From: an uncultured Candidatus Actinomarina sp.
GTDB taxonomy: Bacteria; Actinomycetota; Acidimicrobiia; Actinomarinales; Actinomarinaceae
Assembly (NCBI GenBank): GCA_902609285.1
Contig: CACLRL010000002.1
Coordinates: forward strand, 15,421 to 79,420
Direction of reading: 5' to 3'
Length of the DNA stretch: 64,000 bases
In this document: piece after piece, positions 6,298 through 13,454 of the stretch
Layout of the letters: every line of letters starts with the position of its first letter
Position numbering within the stretch: position 1 is the first letter of the stretch
Program-made: the position numbers and the translations under genes
The notes under the pieces: model-generated
The model's input: the letters and a program-made list of their open reading frames with translations, nothing else
Databases searched by the model: none
What the model was told of the DNA's origin: nothing

Positions 6298-6401
6298 ATT
6301 TTATTTTCTTTGAAATATTCAATAAAATTTTCTGCAATTTGATCGTCTGTTAAAGCTGTTGTAGGTTCGTTAACAAGAGAGTATCTACAGTTTTAGAAAA
6401 A

Positions 6402-6423
6402 ATGTGGGTGTTTTGTGGGTGTG
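6402..6423. repeat. Imperfect tandem 11-mer pair atgtgggtgtt/ttgtgggtgtg, 20 nt from the tRNA-Val repeat copy
   Basis: Read directly. Same position relative to the 61-nt core repeat as the pairs at 8043-8064 and 13319-13340. Confidence 0.6.
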
Positions 6424-6443
6424 AACAGTTTTTTTCTTACTAG

Positions 6444-6504
6444 ATTTCTGAAAAACCCTTGTGGGCGCTACAGGATTTGAACCTGTGACTTCTTCCTTGT
6501 AAGG
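6444..6504 (-). repeat. Direct-repeat copy: last 43 nt of tRNA-Val (6462-6504) plus 18-nt downstream flank; att-like scar
   Basis: 61/61 identical to 13363-13423 and 8086-8146. Confidence 0.9.
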
Positions 6505-6622
6505 TAAGAACCTTTATATTCGGCAACCTATGAAGACCTACGGCTATTTTTAGTCCAATGATTAATGGCTTATACGGATGCATCTGAAAGCATATGGAAA
6601 CCTATGGAAATAATTCTTTTAA

Positions 6623-6644
6623 AAAGTAGGGGGAAAGTAGGGGG
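6623..6644. repeat. Tandem 11-mer aaagtaggggg x2 (distal end of cassette A)
   Basis: 26-nt alignment of 6622-6647 against 8042-8067 has 2 mismatches, both at the same unit position. Confidence 0.8.
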
Positions 6645-6653
6645 AAATTTAAT

Positions 6654-7589
6654 TTATGGTCGGAAATATGGTGTTCTATCAAAAGTATCAAAAGAGGACC
6701 ATAGAAATGTATATGATGGATTTACCCAACCTAAGTTAACGGGGGCATCCCAGCCTAGCTGCCAAGCATAAGTCCCTACACCACCTACTACTCTATACTC
6801 AACTATTCCTGTCCATTTAGATGAATCAGAACCTTTTTTATAATCTTCTATTTGCAAAGTGATTTTATCAACAAAATAAAAGTACCCAGGATAAAAAAAG
6901 TTTGTATCATTAACTGGATCGTCATATCCGACCAAATCATAAATGTATTCAATCACTTCACCAAATTTCCAAGCTCTATAATCAAATTCAGTTAACAATA
7001 CTTCGTAATCACTATATCCAAAATCATTCACACAACGAATAGATAAATCTTTACAAGCTTGTAAAGTTATAGATACACCAGTCACTCTATAATCTTCAGG
7101 AACTTCAATAGATATTTCACCAAAAGCCCTATTTCCACCTGAATATGGAAGTGATAAACTAACATTAAAAATACCAGGAAAGTTATCGAAAAGAGATTTA
7201 CAACCTCCTCTTCTGGAAGCATCACAATTTTTGTCTTGCCATCCATTATTGATAACAAAATCACCTTCATAACCTCGAAAACCTTCATAAAAAGTCATAT
7301 CTAATTTATGTTGAAAATATTCTCTTTTAGTTTTAAAAACTGACAATCCATAACCCTCTTCAGCAATTGTTGTTGTCGTTGTCTTGGGAACAGTTGTTGT
7401 CGTTGTCTTGGGAACAGTTGTTGTCGTTGTCTTGGGAACAGTTGTAGAAGAAGTTACGACAGAAGGTGTTGTTTGATTTTCCACGGATGCTGAATTATTG
7501 GAACCTAATTCACCACCTATAATAATAAATAAAGCAAAAGCTAAAATCCATACCCCACTTATATTGGATATAAATTTATCTAATTTCAT
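6654..7589 (-). CDS. N-terminally anchored or secreted protein with Thr-rich repeat linker and Cys-containing aromatic-rich C-terminal domain, function unknown
   Basis: 311 aa. Hydrophobic N-terminus GVWILAFALFIIIGG. TTTTTVPK x3 linker. C-terminal ~230 aa carries two closely spaced Cys pairs (CDASRRGGC, CKDLSIRC). No enzymatic motif recognised. Confidence 0.6.
   Translation of the reverse strand: MKLDKFISNISGVWILAFALFIIIGGELGSNNSASVENQTTPSVVTSSTTVPKTTTTTVPKTTTTTVPKTTTTTIAEEGYGLSVFKTKREYFQHKLDMTFYEGFRGYEGDFVINNGWQDKNCDASRRGGCKSLFDNFPGIFNVSLSLPYSGGNRAFGEISIEVPEDYRVTGVSITLQACKDLSIRCVNDFGYSDYEVLLTEFDYRAWKFGEVIEYIYDLVGYDDPVNDTNFFYPGYFYFVDKITLQIEDYKKGSDSSKWTGIVEYRVVGGVGTYAWQLGWDAPVNLGWVNPSYTFLWSSFDTFDRTPYFRP
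7369..7440. repeat. Perfect 3 x 24 bp tandem repeat inside the CDS (encodes the TTTTTVPK units)
   Basis: The unit gttgttgtcgttgtcttgggaaca occurs at 7369-7392, 7393-7416 and 7417-7440 with no mismatch. Confidence 0.95.
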
Positions 7590-7600
7590 TACCTAAAAAA

Positions 7601-8014
7601 CTAATCATTAGCAAAGTTGATTATGCAAGATATATATGAAGATCTGAAATTTTCATCTAATACATCAACGTTAACTTCAAAACTATCGGGATAAATACCA
7701 CGTTCAGCAATAAAACCAAACCTTTTTGTTTCAAAAGCTTTTGGTAAATCAAAAAGATCTGATGACTCTATTTCTTTATCAATGTAGAATCTTGCTAGAT
7801 ACATTCCATTTTCAGTAATTAAAACAAATATATTTACAATATCTGAATTCCCAGCAGTTATATCAAACTCTAAACTAACCTCATCTTGAACAACAGGAGT
7901 ACTTGGACAAACAACACTTTTTATTAAAGGATTTGTCTTTGAGTAAATAAAAGCTGAGAGAGAAATAAATACTATAAAAAAAATTACAAAAGTTGAATCT
8001 TTAATTGCTTTCAT
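7601..8014 (-). CDS. Small secreted or membrane-anchored protein (137 aa), function unknown
   Basis: Hydrophobic N-terminus FVIFFIVFISLSAF. Lies 11 nt upstream of the 311-aa gene on the same strand. Confidence 0.55.
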   Translation of the reverse strand: MKAIKDSTFVIFFIVFISLSAFIYSKTNPLIKSVVCPSTPVVQDEVSLEFDITAGNSDIVNIFVLITENGMYLARFYIDKEIESSDLFDLPKAFETKRFGFIAERGIYPDSFEVNVDVLDENFRSSYISCIINFAND

Positions 8015-8042
8015 AATTTTATTCTATAAATAATATTCACCA

Positions 8043-8064
8043 AATGTAGGGGGAATGTAGGGGG
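8043..8064. repeat. Tandem 11-mer aatgtaggggg x2 (tRNA-proximal end of cassette A)
   Basis: Partner of 6623-6644. Lies 21 nt from the core repeat starting at 8086. Confidence 0.8.
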
Positions 8065-8085
8065 AAACGTCTGTTTTTGAATATG

Positions 8086-8150
8086 ATTTCTGAAAAACCC
8101 TTGTGGGCGCTACAGGATTTGAACCTGTGACTTCTTCCTTGTAAGGGAAG
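8086..8150 (-). repeat. Direct-repeat copy: last 47 nt of tRNA-Val (8104-8150) plus 18-nt downstream flank; att-like scar
   Basis: 65/65 identical to 13363-13427. Confidence 0.9.
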
Positions 8151-8262
8151 AACGATTAAATACTAGAGAGTATCGGAGAGTATCAAATTAGATCATCAAT
8201 ATATATAGGGCTTGTATCAGGTTGTACTAGATAGTATCAGACTATATCTCTAGTTTTTGACT

Positions 8263-8286
8263 CAAATGTGGGTCAAATGTGGGTCA
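8263..8286. repeat. 24-mer caaatgtgggtcaaatgtgggtca (tandem 11-mer aaatgtgggtc x2), distal end of cassette B
   Basis: 24/24 identical to 13318-13341. Confidence 0.9.
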
Positions 8287-8367
8287 GATTATCATTAATT
8301 TAGATTTAAAAAATCTAATTGATGCCATAGTAGAAGATTAGAGACAGCGTGTGATGCTATTTTTGAT

Positions 8368-10800
8368 TTAACTAAATAGATTACTTATAGTATTGTTAAT
8401 TAATTTCTCGTTCTTATTTATTATGTTTTTAAAACTTTGTAAGATTTCAAATTCTTTTTGTAGTTCACTAGAAATCTCCTTTTGAATCTCCAAACTAGGT
8501 AAGGGGATTTTAATTTTTCTTATTTCAACTAGGTGGAGATTAGTTACAGTACCAGATTTACTCAAATTCATTGCCTGTTTGTAAACAAAGCTAGAGTTAA
8601 GAATGTTTGCAAGAAAATTAGAATTCACTTTGTTTTTATCAGGTTTAATTAAGCATAAACTTACAAATATACTGAATTCATCTTCTCTAGTCACCAACTC
8701 CGCAACACCAATTGTTCCATTTTTTGAATAAAGAATATCTCCTTTTTCTGGATGACATCTTTTTATAAGTTCTGTGTGTTCCTCTTTTGAAATGTATTTA
8801 TTCTCTTTTGATGTTTTCGTGATATCGCTAACTCTTAAAAATGGAATGCCTTCACTTACATATTTAGGAGTTGCGTGAGTTCCATCTGTAATTTTTGTTG
8901 CTATGTCTTCTAGCGATACTAACTCCCAATCTGAATGTATTTCTATATTTGGCCTATAGTTCTCAACAACCTGCCTTGCTCCATCAATAACTTTTTGATA
9001 CTGCTCAATCTCTTCTACTATTTCTAGTTGTTTTTCTAAAGGTGGGAGTGGAATTAAAAGTTCTGCAAATTTTAAATTAATACCCGGTATGATTCCTTGA
9101 ATTTTGTTTTCTAGTGATCTTTGAAACTCTTCTGAGCGTAAGACATAATATAAATATTCAGGTATTAAATTTTCATTCGCTCTAAGAATGAATACATGCT
9201 CATTGATAGCCGCATTTTTAAACTCATTTTTATAAATACCTACTTTGCCTGTTGTTGCTCCATCTTTAACTATCAATACATCTTTATTGAGTAAAATCCC
9301 CTTTTTCATAGTTTTAAAAAATTCCTCGGAAACATATTTTTCTTTTTCAAAACTAATTTCACCTTTAGAAGTTATGTGCTGACCACCAAGAGATGGGATG
9401 CCCTTATTTTTTGCACCACCTTTCTCTCTTTTTCCTGACTCAATCTGCACTACTTTATTTAGTTCGATTAATTCAAAACTTGACTGCATGTTTACAGTTT
9501 TGTAATTATTAATTGCTAAAGATATATTTGAATCTTCAAGGACAATGTCTTTTGATATCTCCATATCATCGATTCTGGGTTCAAAAGATAAAATTGCAGA
9601 TATTACCTGTGGCAAATCATTTTGTTTTATTTTAGTTCTCTGATCGCCAAGTGAGTAGCCATCATTCTTTATTTCGTTGAAAAGGATAGTCTCTTTTTGC
9701 AATGACTTATTAATAAATAGTATTGATGTTTTTACTCCTGAATATGGTTTAAAAACTCCTGAAGGTAAAGAAACAACTGCAAACAAACCATTTTCTACTA
9801 ATTTTTTCCTAAGTTCTTTATAAGCTTTACCTGATTGAAAAATAATACCTTCAGGAACAATTATTCCAGCTCTACCTTTTGGCTTTAAGTGTGTAAGGAT
9901 GTAGTCAACAAACAGAGCTTCAGCTCTATTTGATTTAAGTCCAAATTTATTATGAGGTCTAATACCTCCTTTTGGAGTCATAAAAGGTGGATTAGCAAGA
10001 ATGACATCATAGTATTCACTCCACCTATCTTCTGAAGTTAACGCATCATATTCAACTACATTTGGTTCAGGAAATCCATGAAGATACATATTGGCAAGTC
10101 CAATTCGAACCATGTCTGGAGAGATGTCATAACCATTAATATTTTCCATTATTTTTTTTCGTTCAGCTGCAGAAAGTAAGTCTCCACTACTTTTCTCAGA
10201 GTTGGAGTTAACAATATGCTTAAATGCTGAAATTAAAAATCCTGAAGTTCCTGAGGCAGGATCTAAAACAGTTTCATCTTTTTTAGGATCAACTATTTCA
10301 ACAATAAAGTCAATAATGTGTCTTGGAGTTCTGAATTGTCCTGCATCTCCTTGAGAGCTAAGTGAGTTTAAAATATGCTCAAAAGCATCACCGAGTTGTT
10401 CAGAGTCTTTTGAGTAATCAAAATCATCAATCTGGCTTAAAAAGAGTCTTAGTGTTTCAGCATCCTTATAAGGTATATAGGCATTTTTAAATATATCTCT
10501 AAAGAGTTGTGGGATATAAGGATTTTCCTCCATTGACTCAACTGCTGTTGAATACAGGTCTACCAGCTCACTTCCAGAAACCTTTGTACCAAATAAATTG
10601 TCCCAAGAATACTTTTCAAAGTCGCCAACAAAAAATGAAGCCTCTCCGCCTAAGTCTGTAGATTCTTTGTCCATATCATTCATGAATTTGTAAATTAATG
10701 CAATCATGATTTGCTCTACTTGGCTTTTTGGATCTGGAACTTTTCCTACGAGAGTATCTCGAAGGTCATTAATTTTTTTCTTTGTCTCTTGGTCTAACAT
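8368..10800 (-). CDS. hsdMS: Type I restriction-modification methyltransferase fused to specificity subunit (HsdM-HsdS fusion, 810 aa)
   Basis: The N-terminal ~440 aa carry AdoMet motif I DPASGTSGFL and catalytic motif IV NPPF (ILANPPFMTPKGG). The C-terminal ~370 aa carry two target-recognition-domain-like repeats, each ending in a conserved helix (IPLPPLEKQLEIVEEIE and IPLPSLEIQKEISSEL). Confidence 0.85.
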   Translation of the reverse strand: MLDQETKKKINDLRDTLVGKVPDPKSQVEQIMIALIYKFMNDMDKESTDLGGEASFFVGDFEKYSWDNLFGTKVSGSELVDLYSTAVESMEENPYIPQLFRDIFKNAYIPYKDAETLRLFLSQIDDFDYSKDSEQLGDAFEHILNSLSSQGDAGQFRTPRHIIDFIVEIVDPKKDETVLDPASGTSGFLISAFKHIVNSNSEKSSGDLLSAAERKKIMENINGYDISPDMVRIGLANMYLHGFPEPNVVEYDALTSEDRWSEYYDVILANPPFMTPKGGIRPHNKFGLKSNRAEALFVDYILTHLKPKGRAGIIVPEGIIFQSGKAYKELRKKLVENGLFAVVSLPSGVFKPYSGVKTSILFINKSLQKETILFNEIKNDGYSLGDQRTKIKQNDLPQVISAILSFEPRIDDMEISKDIVLEDSNISLAINNYKTVNMQSSFELIELNKVVQIESGKREKGGAKNKGIPSLGGQHITSKGEISFEKEKYVSEEFFKTMKKGILLNKDVLIVKDGATTGKVGIYKNEFKNAAINEHVFILRANENLIPEYLYYVLRSEEFQRSLENKIQGIIPGINLKFAELLIPLPPLEKQLEIVEEIEQYQKVIDGARQVVENYRPNIEIHSDWELVSLEDIATKITDGTHATPKYVSEGIPFLRVSDITKTSKENKYISKEEHTELIKRCHPEKGDILYSKNGTIGVAELVTREDEFSIFVSLCLIKPDKNKVNSNFLANILNSSFVYKQAMNLSKSGTVTNLHLVEIRKIKIPLPSLEIQKEISSELQKEFEILQSFKNIINKNEKLINNTISNLFS

Positions 10801-13290
10801 CTATGCAAACTTTTCAATCTCTATATTATTTTTTATATATGACAATATTGTATCCCTCATACCCTCAGGTATTGCTTTAAAATGCTCTAATAAATTAGAG
10901 GAGTGTGTATTGAGATCTGCATATTTTCTACTATCAATAATCTCTCTTACTTCTTTATCCACTAAGTAAGTCTCAAAGAAATAACGAACACTTCTAAAAT
11001 ACACTTCATCTGGTTGGTGTTCATTATCAAACTTATCAAAAGCCTCTTCAAGTTGTTCCTTTTTTGATTTAATTCTGTCGGTAAACCCAAAGCTGTACAT
11101 CAAAATATCCAATACAGATAGCTTTCTGTCAGTCTTTAATGCAATCTCAAGATTTTTAAGCGTGAAGTACTCCTCAGGCTTATCAAATACTTTTTTAGCT
11201 AAGTACTCTTCTATTTTTGACACTTCTCCAAGCTCAACCAGTTCTCTTAATTCTGGATGGTCTTGAATAGTATCTATAAATCTATCAAAATATACTTGAT
11301 CAATTTTCATTCCCTGAGTGGTTAAAGGAATTTCTTCTAGTGATTTAAGTGGGTCTAAAACATAGCTTTCAGCTGTATCTAGCTCTGGTGTATCAATATC
11401 TATAGGAGGTTCTCCAGGCTTAGAGGGTTTAGCTGGTAGTTTCAGCTTTTGGTCATAATCAAACTCTTTTTCAAAATATTCATAATTTCCGAAGAAATCG
11501 AAGAGTGCAAAATCATGTTTTATAGAATTAATAGCTTCATTGACTTCGTCTTTATCTATCCAATCCTCGCTAAAGTCTTTTCTTCTTGTGCCTCTTCCTT
11601 TCATCTGAATAAAGTCTGATGGAGAGTAAATTGGTCTCATCATGGCAATATTTAATAAATCTGTACAGTCATAACCTGTGGTCATCATCCCCACTGTGAC
11701 ACATACTCTTGTCTTAGAAGTTCTGTAATACTCGTTTACTGTAGAAAATCCATTGAGTGTGTTGTTTGCAAAATCTACTGTCATTTGTTGCGAGCCCATT
11801 ACATTAGAAGTCACTTGAACTGCAAAATCGCTTTGATATTTATTTGGAAACATCTCAAGTGCATACTCGTTCAAAATCTGAGTTACTTTTGCTGCATGCT
11901 TTTGTGAGACACAGAATATTAAAGATTTCCCTATCTCTCCTGTGTAGGGATCTTTTCTTGCATTCTGTAAAAAGGTCTCGCAGAATTTTCTATTTGTCTC
12001 CTCAGAGAAAAACTTCTTTTCAAAATCTTTCTTGGTAAATGTCTCTTCGACATCATTACCATCTTCATCGGTGCCTTCAAAAAGATACCCTTCTTCACTC
12101 AGTAACTCTGTTGTGATATCTGTTCGTGCATCGTATACAAATGGATTGATAAGAAACCCCTCTTTAACACCATCTAAAAGAGAGTACCTAAAAGTAGGTT
12201 CGCCACTTCTACATCCAAAAGTTGTATAGGTATCTAACATCATTCTACGCTCTAACTCTCTTGGATCTCTCTCAGTTAAGCCAGAGATATTGACTGACTT
12301 TAAATAGTCTTTTGGTGTTGCAGTAAGTCCTAATTTAAATCCAACAAAGTACTCAAATACTCTTCTGCTTTTTCTACCTAAAGACCTATGTGCTTCGTCT
12401 GAGATAACGAGATCAAAATCACTTGGTTTGAATATTCTCTTATATTTATTGTCAGAAATAAAAGACTGAACAGTAGAGACAACGATCTGTGCACTATTCC
12501 AATTCTTGGAGTTTTCTTTCCAAATTACTGTGGTGTAATCATTTTTCAGAACCTTATTGAACTCTTTTTGAGCTTGTGTCTCAAGTTCTAATCTATCAAC
12601 AAGAAACAAGACTCGTTTTACACCAAAATTGCGTAAAAACATTTTGATAATCGCACTAGAGGTAAGAGTTTTACCTGTACCTGTTGCCATCTCTAAAAGA
12701 AAACGCTCTGAACCCTCTTGAACGCCTTTTTGGATAGTAAGTAATGCCTCTAATTGATATTTTCTTAAAAACCTTAAACCATTGCTAAATATGAACTCTT
12801 CTCTAGTTGATTCGTCTTTGTATTCTGGCTTATTTGCGTAATCAGGCATCTGAGACAATGCAATATAATCATTTCCTATCTCATCAATGTTCTCTTTGTC
12901 CTGATGTGGATTGAATCCTTCTTTTCTATCTTCAAGATTTCTTTGTTGTGGAAACTCTCCGATAGTGTTTGGATTGCCAGTTTCAATATCCCAGAAATAG
13001 TGCTCTCGTCCATTTGAAAGAATAATAAAGCGACAATTGAGTGCATTGGCATACTCTCTTGCTTGTTCTTTTGCTGAAAGTGGATCTATATCAAAATTTT
13101 TAGCTTCTAAAACACATAGAGGAAATCCATCTGAATCCATTAAGACATAATCTGCAGGTTTGCCTATGGGTGTTCTGTACTCGACTTCTACATTGTGTTG
13201 GTCAGAATCAGCATCAAGAACCCAACCAGTTTGTGCAAGCATTGCATTGATCTGAATTCTACTTTGAGCTTCATTTTTACTAGCAACCAT
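10801..13290 (-). CDS. hsdR: Type I restriction enzyme R subunit (HsdR, EcoEI-like C-terminus)
   Basis: N-terminal PD-(D/E)xK region (ADYVLMDSDG...VLEAKNFD). Helicase motifs MATGTGKT, DEAH (VISDEAHRS), TATP and MKGRGTRR. Stop TAG directly abuts the hsdMS ATG. Start placed at the internal ATG (MVASKNEAQ, 13290) rather than the ORF-track 13320, which would run into the 24-mer repeat. Confidence 0.85.
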   Translation of the reverse strand: MVASKNEAQSRIQINAMLAQTGWVLDADSDQHNVEVEYRTPIGKPADYVLMDSDGFPLCVLEAKNFDIDPLSAKEQAREYANALNCRFIILSNGREHYFWDIETGNPNTIGEFPQQRNLEDRKEGFNPHQDKENIDEIGNDYIALSQMPDYANKPEYKDESTREEFIFSNGLRFLRKYQLEALLTIQKGVQEGSERFLLEMATGTGKTLTSSAIIKMFLRNFGVKRVLFLVDRLELETQAQKEFNKVLKNDYTTVIWKENSKNWNSAQIVVSTVQSFISDNKYKRIFKPSDFDLVISDEAHRSLGRKSRRVFEYFVGFKLGLTATPKDYLKSVNISGLTERDPRELERRMMLDTYTTFGCRSGEPTFRYSLLDGVKEGFLINPFVYDARTDITTELLSEEGYLFEGTDEDGNDVEETFTKKDFEKKFFSEETNRKFCETFLQNARKDPYTGEIGKSLIFCVSQKHAAKVTQILNEYALEMFPNKYQSDFAVQVTSNVMGSQQMTVDFANNTLNGFSTVNEYYRTSKTRVCVTVGMMTTGYDCTDLLNIAMMRPIYSPSDFIQMKGRGTRRKDFSEDWIDKDEVNEAINSIKHDFALFDFFGNYEYFEKEFDYDQKLKLPAKPSKPGEPPIDIDTPELDTAESYVLDPLKSLEEIPLTTQGMKIDQVYFDRFIDTIQDHPELRELVELGEVSKIEEYLAKKVFDKPEEYFTLKNLEIALKTDRKLSVLDILMYSFGFTDRIKSKKEQLEEAFDKFDNEHQPDEVYFRSVRYFFETYLVDKEVREIIDSRKYADLNTHSSNLLEHFKAIPEGMRDTILSYIKNNIEIEKFA

Positions 13291-13317
13291 TACGCAATTA
13301 TAAACTATGAATGAATG

Positions 13318-13341
13318 CAAATGTGGGTCAAATGTGGGTCA
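13318..13341. repeat. 24-mer caaatgtgggtcaaatgtgggtca (tandem 11-mer x2), tRNA-proximal end of cassette B
   Basis: Identical to 8263-8286. Lies 22 nt from the core repeat starting at 13363. Confidence 0.9.
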
Positions 13342-13380
13342 CTTTGAATTTTTTCTTACTGTATTTCTGAAAAACCCTTG

Positions 13381-13454
13381 TGGGCGCTACAGGATTTGAA
13401 CCTGTGACTTCTTCCTTGTAAGGGAAGTGCTCTGCCAGACTGAGCTAAGCGCCC
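13381..13454 (-). tRNA. tRNA-Val (anticodon TAC), 74 nt, no encoded CCA
   Basis: Hand-folded. Acceptor GGGCGCT/AGCGCCC, D stem GCTC/GAGC, anticodon stem CTTCC/GGAAG with loop CTTACAA, T arm ACAGG-TTCAAAT-CCTGT, discriminator A. Confidence 0.9.

Follow-up and report, generated by a model that had tools for sequence, protein, structure and literature searches.

The attP sites of phage lambda and mycobacteriophage L5 carry repeated 10-11-bp arm words that are unlike the core and occur as adjacent pairs on both arms, and their integrases have an extra N-terminal domain. L5 integrates into a tRNA gene of an actinobacterium. Units lacking recombination genes are known from Streptococcus, where the cis-mobilizable elements (CIMEs) at the att sites of integrative and conjugative elements (ICEs; ICESt3 family) are flanked by seemingly functional attL and attR, lie in tandem with or beside integrase-encoding relatives and are proposed to be mobilised in trans (accretion-mobilisation). 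Here we describe two cargo cassettes, A and B, at the tRNA-Val(TAC) gene of a 64-kb stretch of DNA from Candidatus Actinomarina, referred to as the window throughout. Their ends are marked by pairs of tandem 11-mers, which we call words. We consider it likely that integrase-less cargo cassettes are arrayed here in tandem at the 3' half of tRNA-Val, each with a complete, minimal lambda/L5-type attP split into attL and attR, and that the array works by the mechanism outlined below.

Few bacteria of the surface ocean are as abundant or as genome-reduced as Actinomarina, in whose genomes mobile elements have been described as nearly lacking. Even so, its flexible island changes quickly, and our analysis points to how a bacterium with such a tiny genome swaps genes there. 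Lopez-Perez et al. (2020, PMC7771536) reported cassettes of flexible genomic island 1 (fGI1) in Candidatus Actinomarinales at five tRNAs, set off by directly repeated tRNA fragments; no integrase is named there (the term is absent from the text), and neither arms nor words are mentioned. This fGI1 is the same island as the one in the window. A 2026 preprint on complete Actinomarina genomes (10.64898/2026.04.03.716425) describes the integration mechanism as still to be identified, and our search of the literature on Actinomarina and integrase found nothing relevant. The tycheposons of Prochlorococcus are tRNA-targeted tyrosine-recombinase elements with PICI-like (phage-inducible chromosomal island-like) and cargo forms, whose tandem insertions, split by partial tRNAs, build islands; Actinomarina, arm-type sites and direct-repeat words are unmentioned there (Hackl et al., bioRxiv 10.1101/2020.12.28.424599). 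The CIME category is listed in ICEberg 2.0 (PMC6323972).

Word pairs and the att sites of free circles

Three copies of a core of about 61 nt were found in the window, each consisting of about 18 nt of 3' flank and the 3' part of tRNA-Val through the anticodon stem-loop. The identity block takes in this stem-loop (CTTCC-TTGTAAG-GGAAG), which has the form of inverted core-type arms around an overlap of about 7 bp. The proximal word pairs lie 20-22 nt from a core and the distal pairs at 112 nt (cassette B) and 118 nt (cassette A). An initial annotation, made from the letters of the window, had likened this arrangement to the arm-type sites of an attP; its coordinates for the cores, pairs, gaps and 24-mers all hold on recheck, including both sets of gap lengths. 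The third pair, which it placed at 6402-6423, is real and begins 2 nt earlier, at 6400-6421. The two ends of cassette A differ at two bases, one in each unit and at matching positions (A,A versus T,T), as had been noticed before.

The word pairs at the cassette ends are not chance occurrences. Word B gave 5 matches at no more than one mismatch (0.77 expected) and word A gave 6 (0.88 expected), and none of 100 dinucleotide-preserving shuffles reached either count. A scan of the whole 64 kb for tandem pairs of period 11, requiring at least 10/11 identical positions and at least 4 G/C, returned only the four cassette-end pairs. The annotation had allowed for a generic dispersed repeat; the scan and the shuffles show that the words are not of this kind. 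Its suspicion that the likeness of the words to tRNA-Lys was fortuitous was borne out, as the shared bases belong to the tRNA-Lys acceptor stem and no tandem pair is present there.

When one genome per species was searched for exact copies of the core, 53 loci were returned, nearly all from Candidatus Actinomarina (OCS155, Actinomarinales). The layout recurs in about 50 other Actinomarina genomes in the order core, arm of about 112 nt, pair X, cargo, pair X, about 21 nt and next core. The spacing, on whose conservation the arm-site proposal had been made to depend, is kept in the homologous cassettes of these genomes, with a proximal offset of 19-23 nt and the distal pair always at 158-165 from the core anchor. 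Cores bound 33 cassettes on both sides; in 25 of these, each end has a detectable pair, and in all 25 a word of at least 9 nt is common to the two ends, compared with 68 of 600 mismatched-cassette controls. At least thirteen word classes were distinguished, namely GTGGGTG, GTGGGTC, GTGTGTC, GTGTGTG, GGTGTCT, GGGCGTC, GTTCGGT, GTGCGTG, GTGCGGT, GTGGGGT, GTAGGGG, GTGCGTC and GTGGGGG. The cargo is highly varied, its proteins forming 170 clusters, with restriction-modification systems, nucleases of the HNH and NucS types and surface proteins among them; a batch Pfam scan of 92 representative cargo open reading frames (ORFs) revealed the commonest families alone.

An integrase was found in just one of the 53 tRNA-Val core loci of the reference genomes. 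This locus, L050 (single-amplified genome AG-891-I09), holds an element of about 6 kb between a partial core and the intact tRNA, in a cassette-like layout with AAAAGTGGGGG x2 on both sides. The element encodes a DUF3631 protein and a tyrosine recombinase (Pfam PF00589, E = 5e-19) whose frame runs upstream to a GTG start, giving an extra N-terminal domain. The integrase was found by reading the cargo ORFs; phmmer, run with the integrases of L5 and lambda on all six-frame ORFs from the window and L001-L053, gave zero matches and missed the real L050 integrase too. Twenty-three close relatives of this integrase (42-100% identity) were found in marine metagenomes, on contigs of 5.5-7.4 kb. The two ends of these contigs overlap by exactly one assembler k-mer (127 or 141 nt), or the contigs are circularly permuted versions of one another, which indicates free circles. 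A metagenome scan with the integrase alignment added 48 more loci.

These elements encode the tyrosine integrase with its extra N-terminal domain, the DUF3631 replication-type protein, a small terminase subunit (PHROG 4102, E = 2e-21) and helix-turn-helix regulators, the matches of the last being weak. With this set of genes in a small element, the small terminase subunit included, they resemble PICI-like phage satellites. Some integrase lineages target tRNA-Ile(GAT) rather than tRNA-Val. Locus L070 is the L072 circle in integrated form, and the core-left and core-right sequences of the circle are found at its tRNA-proximal and tRNA-distal junctions respectively, which places recombination within the core.

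The attP of the circles lies 3' of int and has the order tandem 11-mer pair, spacer of 21 or 56 nt, tRNA fragment, arm of about 113 nt and the same pair again, with a pair-to-pair spacing of 220-222 or 241-245 nt, depending on the clade. At least 12 distinct elements have one tandem 11-mer on their two arms; most lie on circle-assembling contigs or have an uninterrupted attP. Each integrase lineage has its own word, for example ATTGGGGGG, TGTGGGGG, ATCAGGGGG, ATCGGGGGG, GTGGGGACT, TAATTGGGG or TTAGTAGGGG; further lineage words are GTGTGTG, GTGCGTT, GCGGGTC, TCGTGTCTT, TTGTGTCTT and AAGGGTYTGA. A circularised cassette has its pairs about 21 and 113 nt from the core and therefore at the same positions as the pairs flanking the attP of the circles. 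The free circles thus bear out the proposed attP-like layout, as they hold a tRNA fragment with the same word on both sides at similar spacing.

In three cases the pairs of the window carry the same words as the attP pairs of integrase-bearing elements. Downstream of int in L112 and L127 we found CAAATGTGGGTCAAATGTGGGTCA, then CTTTGTATTTTTTCTTACTGT and then the core, with one mismatch to window positions 13318-13379. The pair word in the L112-type element is AAATGTGGGTC, and in L112 the core is followed by AACGATTAAATACTA, the first 15 nt of arm B. Cassette B is hence flanked by the attL and attR of an integrase-encoding relative, its proximal arm being that of L112/L127 and the start of its distal arm that of L112. 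The word of cassette A occurs as AAATGTAGGGG x2 in the integrase-bearing L086, L088 and L099, and the word of the third pair (pair 0) flanks the attP of the integrase-bearing L128 as AATGTGGGTGT x2.

Some circles have a 9-mer repeated three times directly after the int stop (TGTTACNNT, ATGTTCCAG, TGTGTCTNA), which is absent from the integrase-less cassettes. These repeats occupy 4650-4680 in L059 and 2213-2240 in L072 and lie just past the int stop in L074. Scans of IMG/VR for the core, arm and words gave no related element, no contig with the attP of the circles and no helper phage, and a search of viral_contigs with the integrase gave a single distant match. Two IMG/VR candidates (L056, L057) were discarded as high-GC or unrelated and five others (L080-L084) as chance iteron-like arrays. 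Three of the latter (L081, L082, L084) are unrelated viral contigs with CAAATGTAGGG x3 arrays, whose likeness to the cassette A word is chance.

The features of the window are listed in Table 1. No recombinase was found in cassettes A and B by a Pfam scan of the cargo ORFs or by running an integrase-family hidden Markov model against the six-frame translation of the 64-kb window. Within the window, the other four tRNAs have no partial copies.

Table 1. Positions of the tRNA-Val gene, cores, word pairs, arms and cargo in the window (strands as listed).
Feature	Position	Strand	Remarks
End remnant of att arm of about 112 nt (AGAGTATCTACAGTTTTAGAAA)	6378-6399	+	Rest of the arm lost upstream
Pair 0, AAATGTGGGTG/TTTTGTGGGTG	6400-6421	+	Sole pair left in a cargo-less ('empty') unit
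Spacer of about 21 nt, pair 0 to core copy 1	6422-6443	+	TGAACAGGTTTTTTCTTACTAG after the pair-0 word also in L010, L027, L043, L047
Core copy 1, partial tRNA-Val (3' part to anticodon stem-loop) and 18 nt of 3' flank	6444-6504	-	
Arm A, 118 nt, inner CCTAYG repeats	6505-6622	+	Related to arms of clade-I integrase-bearing elements L050, L059, L099
Distal pair of cassette A, AAAGTAGGGGG x2	6623-6644	+	
Cargo A	6645-8042	-	ORFs 6654-7589 and 7601-8014; recombinase absent
Proximal pair of cassette A, AATGTAGGGGG x2	8043-8064	+	
Spacer of cassette A, 21 nt	8065-8085	+	Near-identical spacer in L020
Core copy 2, partial tRNA-Val and 3' flank	8086-8150	-	
Arm B, 112 nt, inner AGTATC repeats	8151-8262	+	Most frequent arm type in the Actinomarina genomes examined
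Distal pair of cassette B, 24-mer CAAATGTGGGTCAAATGTGGGTCA	8263-8286	+	
Cargo B, type I restriction-modification system	8287-13317	-	Pfam N6_Mtase, Methylase_S, ResIII, HSDR_N
Proximal pair of cassette B, 24-mer	13318-13341	+	Identical to 8263-8286
Spacer of cassette B, 21 nt, CTTTGAATTTTTTCTTACTGT	13342-13362	+	1 mismatch to L112/L127 spacer
Core copy 3 inside intact tRNA-Val(TAC), and 17 nt of 3' flank	13363-13454	-	Core itself at 13363-13423
tRNA-Val(TAC) gene	13380-13454	-	Intact

Of the two ORFs in cargo A, the larger encodes a secreted-protein-like product of 311 aa with a Thr-rich repeat and the smaller one of 137 aa, for which an exact look-up found no record. The larger ORF contains a 24-nt tandem repeat in 3-4 copies (7345-7464), which encodes a Thr-rich linker typical of secreted or surface proteins. 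Cargo B consists of a fused HsdM-HsdS (8368-10800), which is a single 810-aa ORF with an N6_Mtase and two Methylase_S domains, and of HsdR, which runs from 10801 to 13290 with an ATG start or to 13320 with a TTG start. The possibility that the word pair supplies a -35 box for hsdR was dropped, as TTGACC is 23 nt from TATAAT and too distant.

A second layer of repeats was observed within the arms, with AGTATC occurring four times in arm B and CCTAYG four times in arm A. These inner motifs are constant across cassettes with different outer 11-mer words, and integrase-bearing circles have GTACC, GTATCT or CCTAC. Either a directionality factor or a DNA-bending host protein may have its sites here.

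Partial tRNA-Val copies with longer tRNA identity, up to GCGCTC, were seen in L005, L010, L036, L046 and L127. They abut ordinary chromosomal genes (cytochrome b561, cation efflux, ABC permeases) and may represent a rearranged or secondary type of junction. Candidate element genes beside odd partial cores in L003, L010 and L036 proved to be ordinary metabolic or transport genes. L052 is labelled as a Bacteroidia metagenome-assembled genome and carries the Actinomarina tRNA-Val core and flank; it is probably a case of mis-binning.

The protein that reads the words

By sequence comparison, it is the N-terminal domain of the integrase (N-domain) that the words track, and not the DUF3631 protein. 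A common word goes with a common N-domain hairpin, and a Mantel comparison of word distance with N-domain distance gave a rho of 0.49, which 0 of 2000 permutations reached. Within the two clades, rho was 0.48 and 0.64 for the N-domain versus 0.34 and 0.33 for the rest of the integrase. Individual pairs of elements show the same relation. The integrases of L078 and L113 have identical catalytic domains (100%), 74% identity in the N-domain and different words, and those of L050 and L086 have 91% catalytic identity, 72% N-domain identity and again different words. L086 at tRNA-Val and L088 at tRNA-Ile share a word, with 76% identity in the catalytic domain and 84% in the N-domain. In L123 and L078, on the other hand, the DUF3631 proteins are 97% identical and the words are unrelated, differing at 8 of 11 positions.

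The AAATGTAGGGG word was observed together with near-identical N-domains at two tRNAs, Val (L086) and Ile(GAT) (L088, L099), from which arm specificity and core specificity would appear to evolve as separate modules.

The N-domain comprises about 60 aa and is modelled by AlphaFold2 as strand-strand-strand-helix (predicted local distance difference test score, pLDDT, 83). The model is consistent with an arm-binding fold. A model of the full-length integrase retrieved Tn1549, full-length lambda and Xer recombinases in Foldseek (E = 1e-15 to 1e-9). Three residues of the N-domain, Cys6, Cys11 and His32, are invariant (alignment A3, P0001 numbering), and Cys15 is conserved in one clade. The invariant Cys/Cys/His set suggests a zinc site; to our knowledge, the arm-binding domains of lambda and Tn916 have none.

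The initial annotation had supposed that different cognate integrases share the one tRNA. The covariation of words and N-domains agrees with this; the cassettes of the window carry no integrase, so a cognate enzyme would be theirs only in the sense of acting in trans. It had also raised the prospect of an integrase with an arm-binding N-domain that travels with the same words. Integrases travelling with the words were indeed found, and for the N-domain an arm-binding nature is consistent with the model.

Cassette units, mechanism and alternatives

The integrase-less cassettes behave as constrained units. The four GTAGGGG-class cassettes (window, L020, L038, L076) are alike only in their att parts, with 88-96% identity, and have cargoes that are unrelated to one another; homology ends no farther than about 5 nt from the distal pair and about 33 nt ahead of the proximal one. 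Arm A is 88-93% identical to the arms of this class in L076, L038 and L020. Between the homologous cassettes of L023 and L024, which are about 85% identical, the same T to C change is found in all four word units (GTGTGTG versus GTGCGTG). One integrase-less cassette of 788 nt recurs at 96.6-99% identity in four species-level genomes. No two of its left flanks are related, the sequences right of the tRNA are unrelated where they can be compared, and its position in the array differs, which fits spread as a unit. A route by which such cassettes arise is plausibly represented by L095, L097 and L118, integrase elements in which cargo lies between int and the proximal pair.

Units reduced to a single pair were also observed. 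The context of pair 0 is of the distal-arm type on its left and of the proximal-spacer type on its right, and the flanks of this unit (6378-6443) match the distal and proximal contexts of the same word in other genomes. The sequence of the remnant, AGAGTATCTACAGTTTTAGAAA, also stands ahead of the distal GTGGGTG pair of L018 and L047, and the distal pairs of L023, L034 and L039 have close variants of it in this place. A cargo-less unit near position 5482 of L042 (oriented coordinates) has a hybrid pair, TTGGGGGTG followed by TTTTGTGTGTC, which suggests a deletion between the pairs of two different cassettes.

In the mechanism that we favour, the N-domain of the integrase would bind the tandem 11-mers and its core-binding and catalytic domains would act at the anticodon stem-loop, the bridging of arm words and core assembling the intasome. 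New arrivals would insert into the intact tRNA, so that older units come to lie farther out. Cassettes A and B would derive from integrase elements through loss of the integrase and replication modules, down to a pair-to-pair attP, and could still be excised or integrated in trans when an element with an integrase for their word visits the cell. The word would act as an address deciding which attL pairs with which attR. The unit at 6378-6443 would have been a full cassette until a deletion from one pair to the other removed the cargo. Seen in this way, the cassettes of the window are best taken as integrase-less cargo units with a minimal attP that probably move in trans.

Several observations weigh against this mechanism. 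No circular integrase-less cassette was observed. Integrases are nearly absent, with none in the 64-kb window and one among the 53 reference tRNA-Val core loci, so that action in trans is required. Cassette A combines a clade-I-type arm with a 21-nt proximal spacer of clade-II type and may for this reason be a non-functional hybrid. The words of L087 and L102 are 1 nt apart and their N-domains are dissimilar. The N-domain has no Pfam match, a profile search of PDB sequences was also empty, and its Foldseek matches are not significant, with the Tn916 integrase N-domain second at E = 1.9. On the 11 elements that are comparable for all proteins, the divergence of the ORF upstream of int follows the words with a rho of 0.44 versus 0.29 for the N-domain, and the words could be read by the product of this ORF instead.

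This last point, together with the lack of a significant match between the N-domain and known arm-binding domains, favours a different reader, in which the 11-mers are bound by another protein of the element (for instance a directionality factor or the product of the 233-301-aa ORF that is translationally coupled to int), which would shape the intasome. The N-domain, however, is placed as arm-binding domains are and has the strand-strand-strand-helix topology, it diverges together with the word where the catalytic domains are identical, and the upstream ORF has no recognisable DNA-binding domain; we find a different reader distinctly unlikely. The scarcity of integrases would also fit cassettes that are dead remnants with functionless pairs, spread and lost only by RecA-type recombination between the 61-nt cores (and arms). 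Cores identical over 61-65 nt could support homologous recombination, and deletions from pair to pair do occur, as the empty unit at 6378-6443 and the hybrid pair of L042 illustrate. On the other side, all the pair-bearing cassettes keep matched words in the correct geometry across at least 13 classes, cassettes are trimmed near the pair-to-pair attP with differing cargo within the same arms, and the concerted change of all four word units in diverged homologues is hard to explain without selection on word identity. Dead remnants therefore seem an unlikely explanation, if one with some chance of being right.

The initial annotation had offered as an alternative that the 24-mers are the attL and attR of cargo inserted into an existing scaffold by recombination at the pair, and had pointed to alleles without cargo and with one copy of the pair as a sign of it. 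One such scaffold exists at 6378-6443 and a similar one in L042, but simple deletion between direct repeats of 22-24 bp explains these empty units best. Nesting is contradicted for the integrase-bearing elements because their free circles contain the tRNA core and both pairs, and the comparison of L070 with L072 places the crossover in the core and not in the pair, which makes this alternative very improbable. The tandem 11-mers might also be taken for replication-origin iterons of a DUF3631 or primase-type initiator, since tandem 11-bp direct repeats are typical of iterons and the CAAATGTAGGG x3 arrays occur in unrelated phage contigs. This is ruled out by L123 and L078, which share the DUF3631 protein and not the words. 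The pairs are moreover at a fixed distance from the recombination core, on both sides of it and at two different tRNAs, and they persist in cassettes without a replication gene; iterons are hence hardly credible here. Overall, the observations support the arm-site proposal of the initial annotation.

Relation to known systems

The analysis supplies a named integrase family, free circular elements that carry the integrase, and an attP defined by two tandem 11-mer pairs. The rule of matching words predicts which integrase should move which cassette. The natural series of integrases that share one core site and differ in arm words should be useful to study or engineer the arm-site specificity of heterobivalent recombinases.

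The Actinomarina elements are like lambda and L5 in having an attP of about 240 bp, a core inside a tRNA, paired 11-mers on both arms and an extra integrase N-domain in front of the SAM-like core-binding and catalytic domains. They are unlike them in that the N-domain has no sequence match to arm-binding domains and contains the invariant Cys/Cys/His. They further differ in having one symmetric pair per arm at a fixed distance and at least 15 word classes on the same core.

With the CIMEs, the Actinomarina cassettes share the flanking attL and attR of relatives and the absence of an own recombinase. In contrast to CIMEs, they consist of a minimal attP and 0.2-5 kb of cargo and form multi-unit tRNA arrays in a genome of about 1 Mb, their putative helpers are small satellite-like circles that are not conjugative, and the arm words would set compatibility classes. 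The tycheposons resemble them in a marine streamlined host, in tRNA-targeted elements, in the occurrence of PICI-like and cargo forms and in tandem insertions with partial tRNAs between them, which is a likeness of lifestyle, whereas in the Actinomarina window it is the integrase-less form that is dominant.

It is possible, although short of probable, that the hypervariable island of Actinomarina is as a whole an integron-like cassette system working on lambda-type sites, in which visiting satellite circles would load and unload integrase-less cargo units, trimmed to an attP of about 240 bp, at tRNAs. The at least 15 words would then form an address code that partitions the tRNA landing pad among competing lineages, and only the attL and attR of the same cassette would recombine. 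The likeness to integrons concerns the mode of working and not membership, as both have arrays of small cargo units, each with a recombination site, and an integrase encoded elsewhere. Unlike integrons, the Actinomarina cassettes have no attC hairpin, IntI or attI platform, and their site is a lambda-type attP split around a tRNA fragment. The system brings together an attP logic of lambda/L5 type and integrase-less units like the CIMEs, in a new element family whose arm words are unusually diversified.

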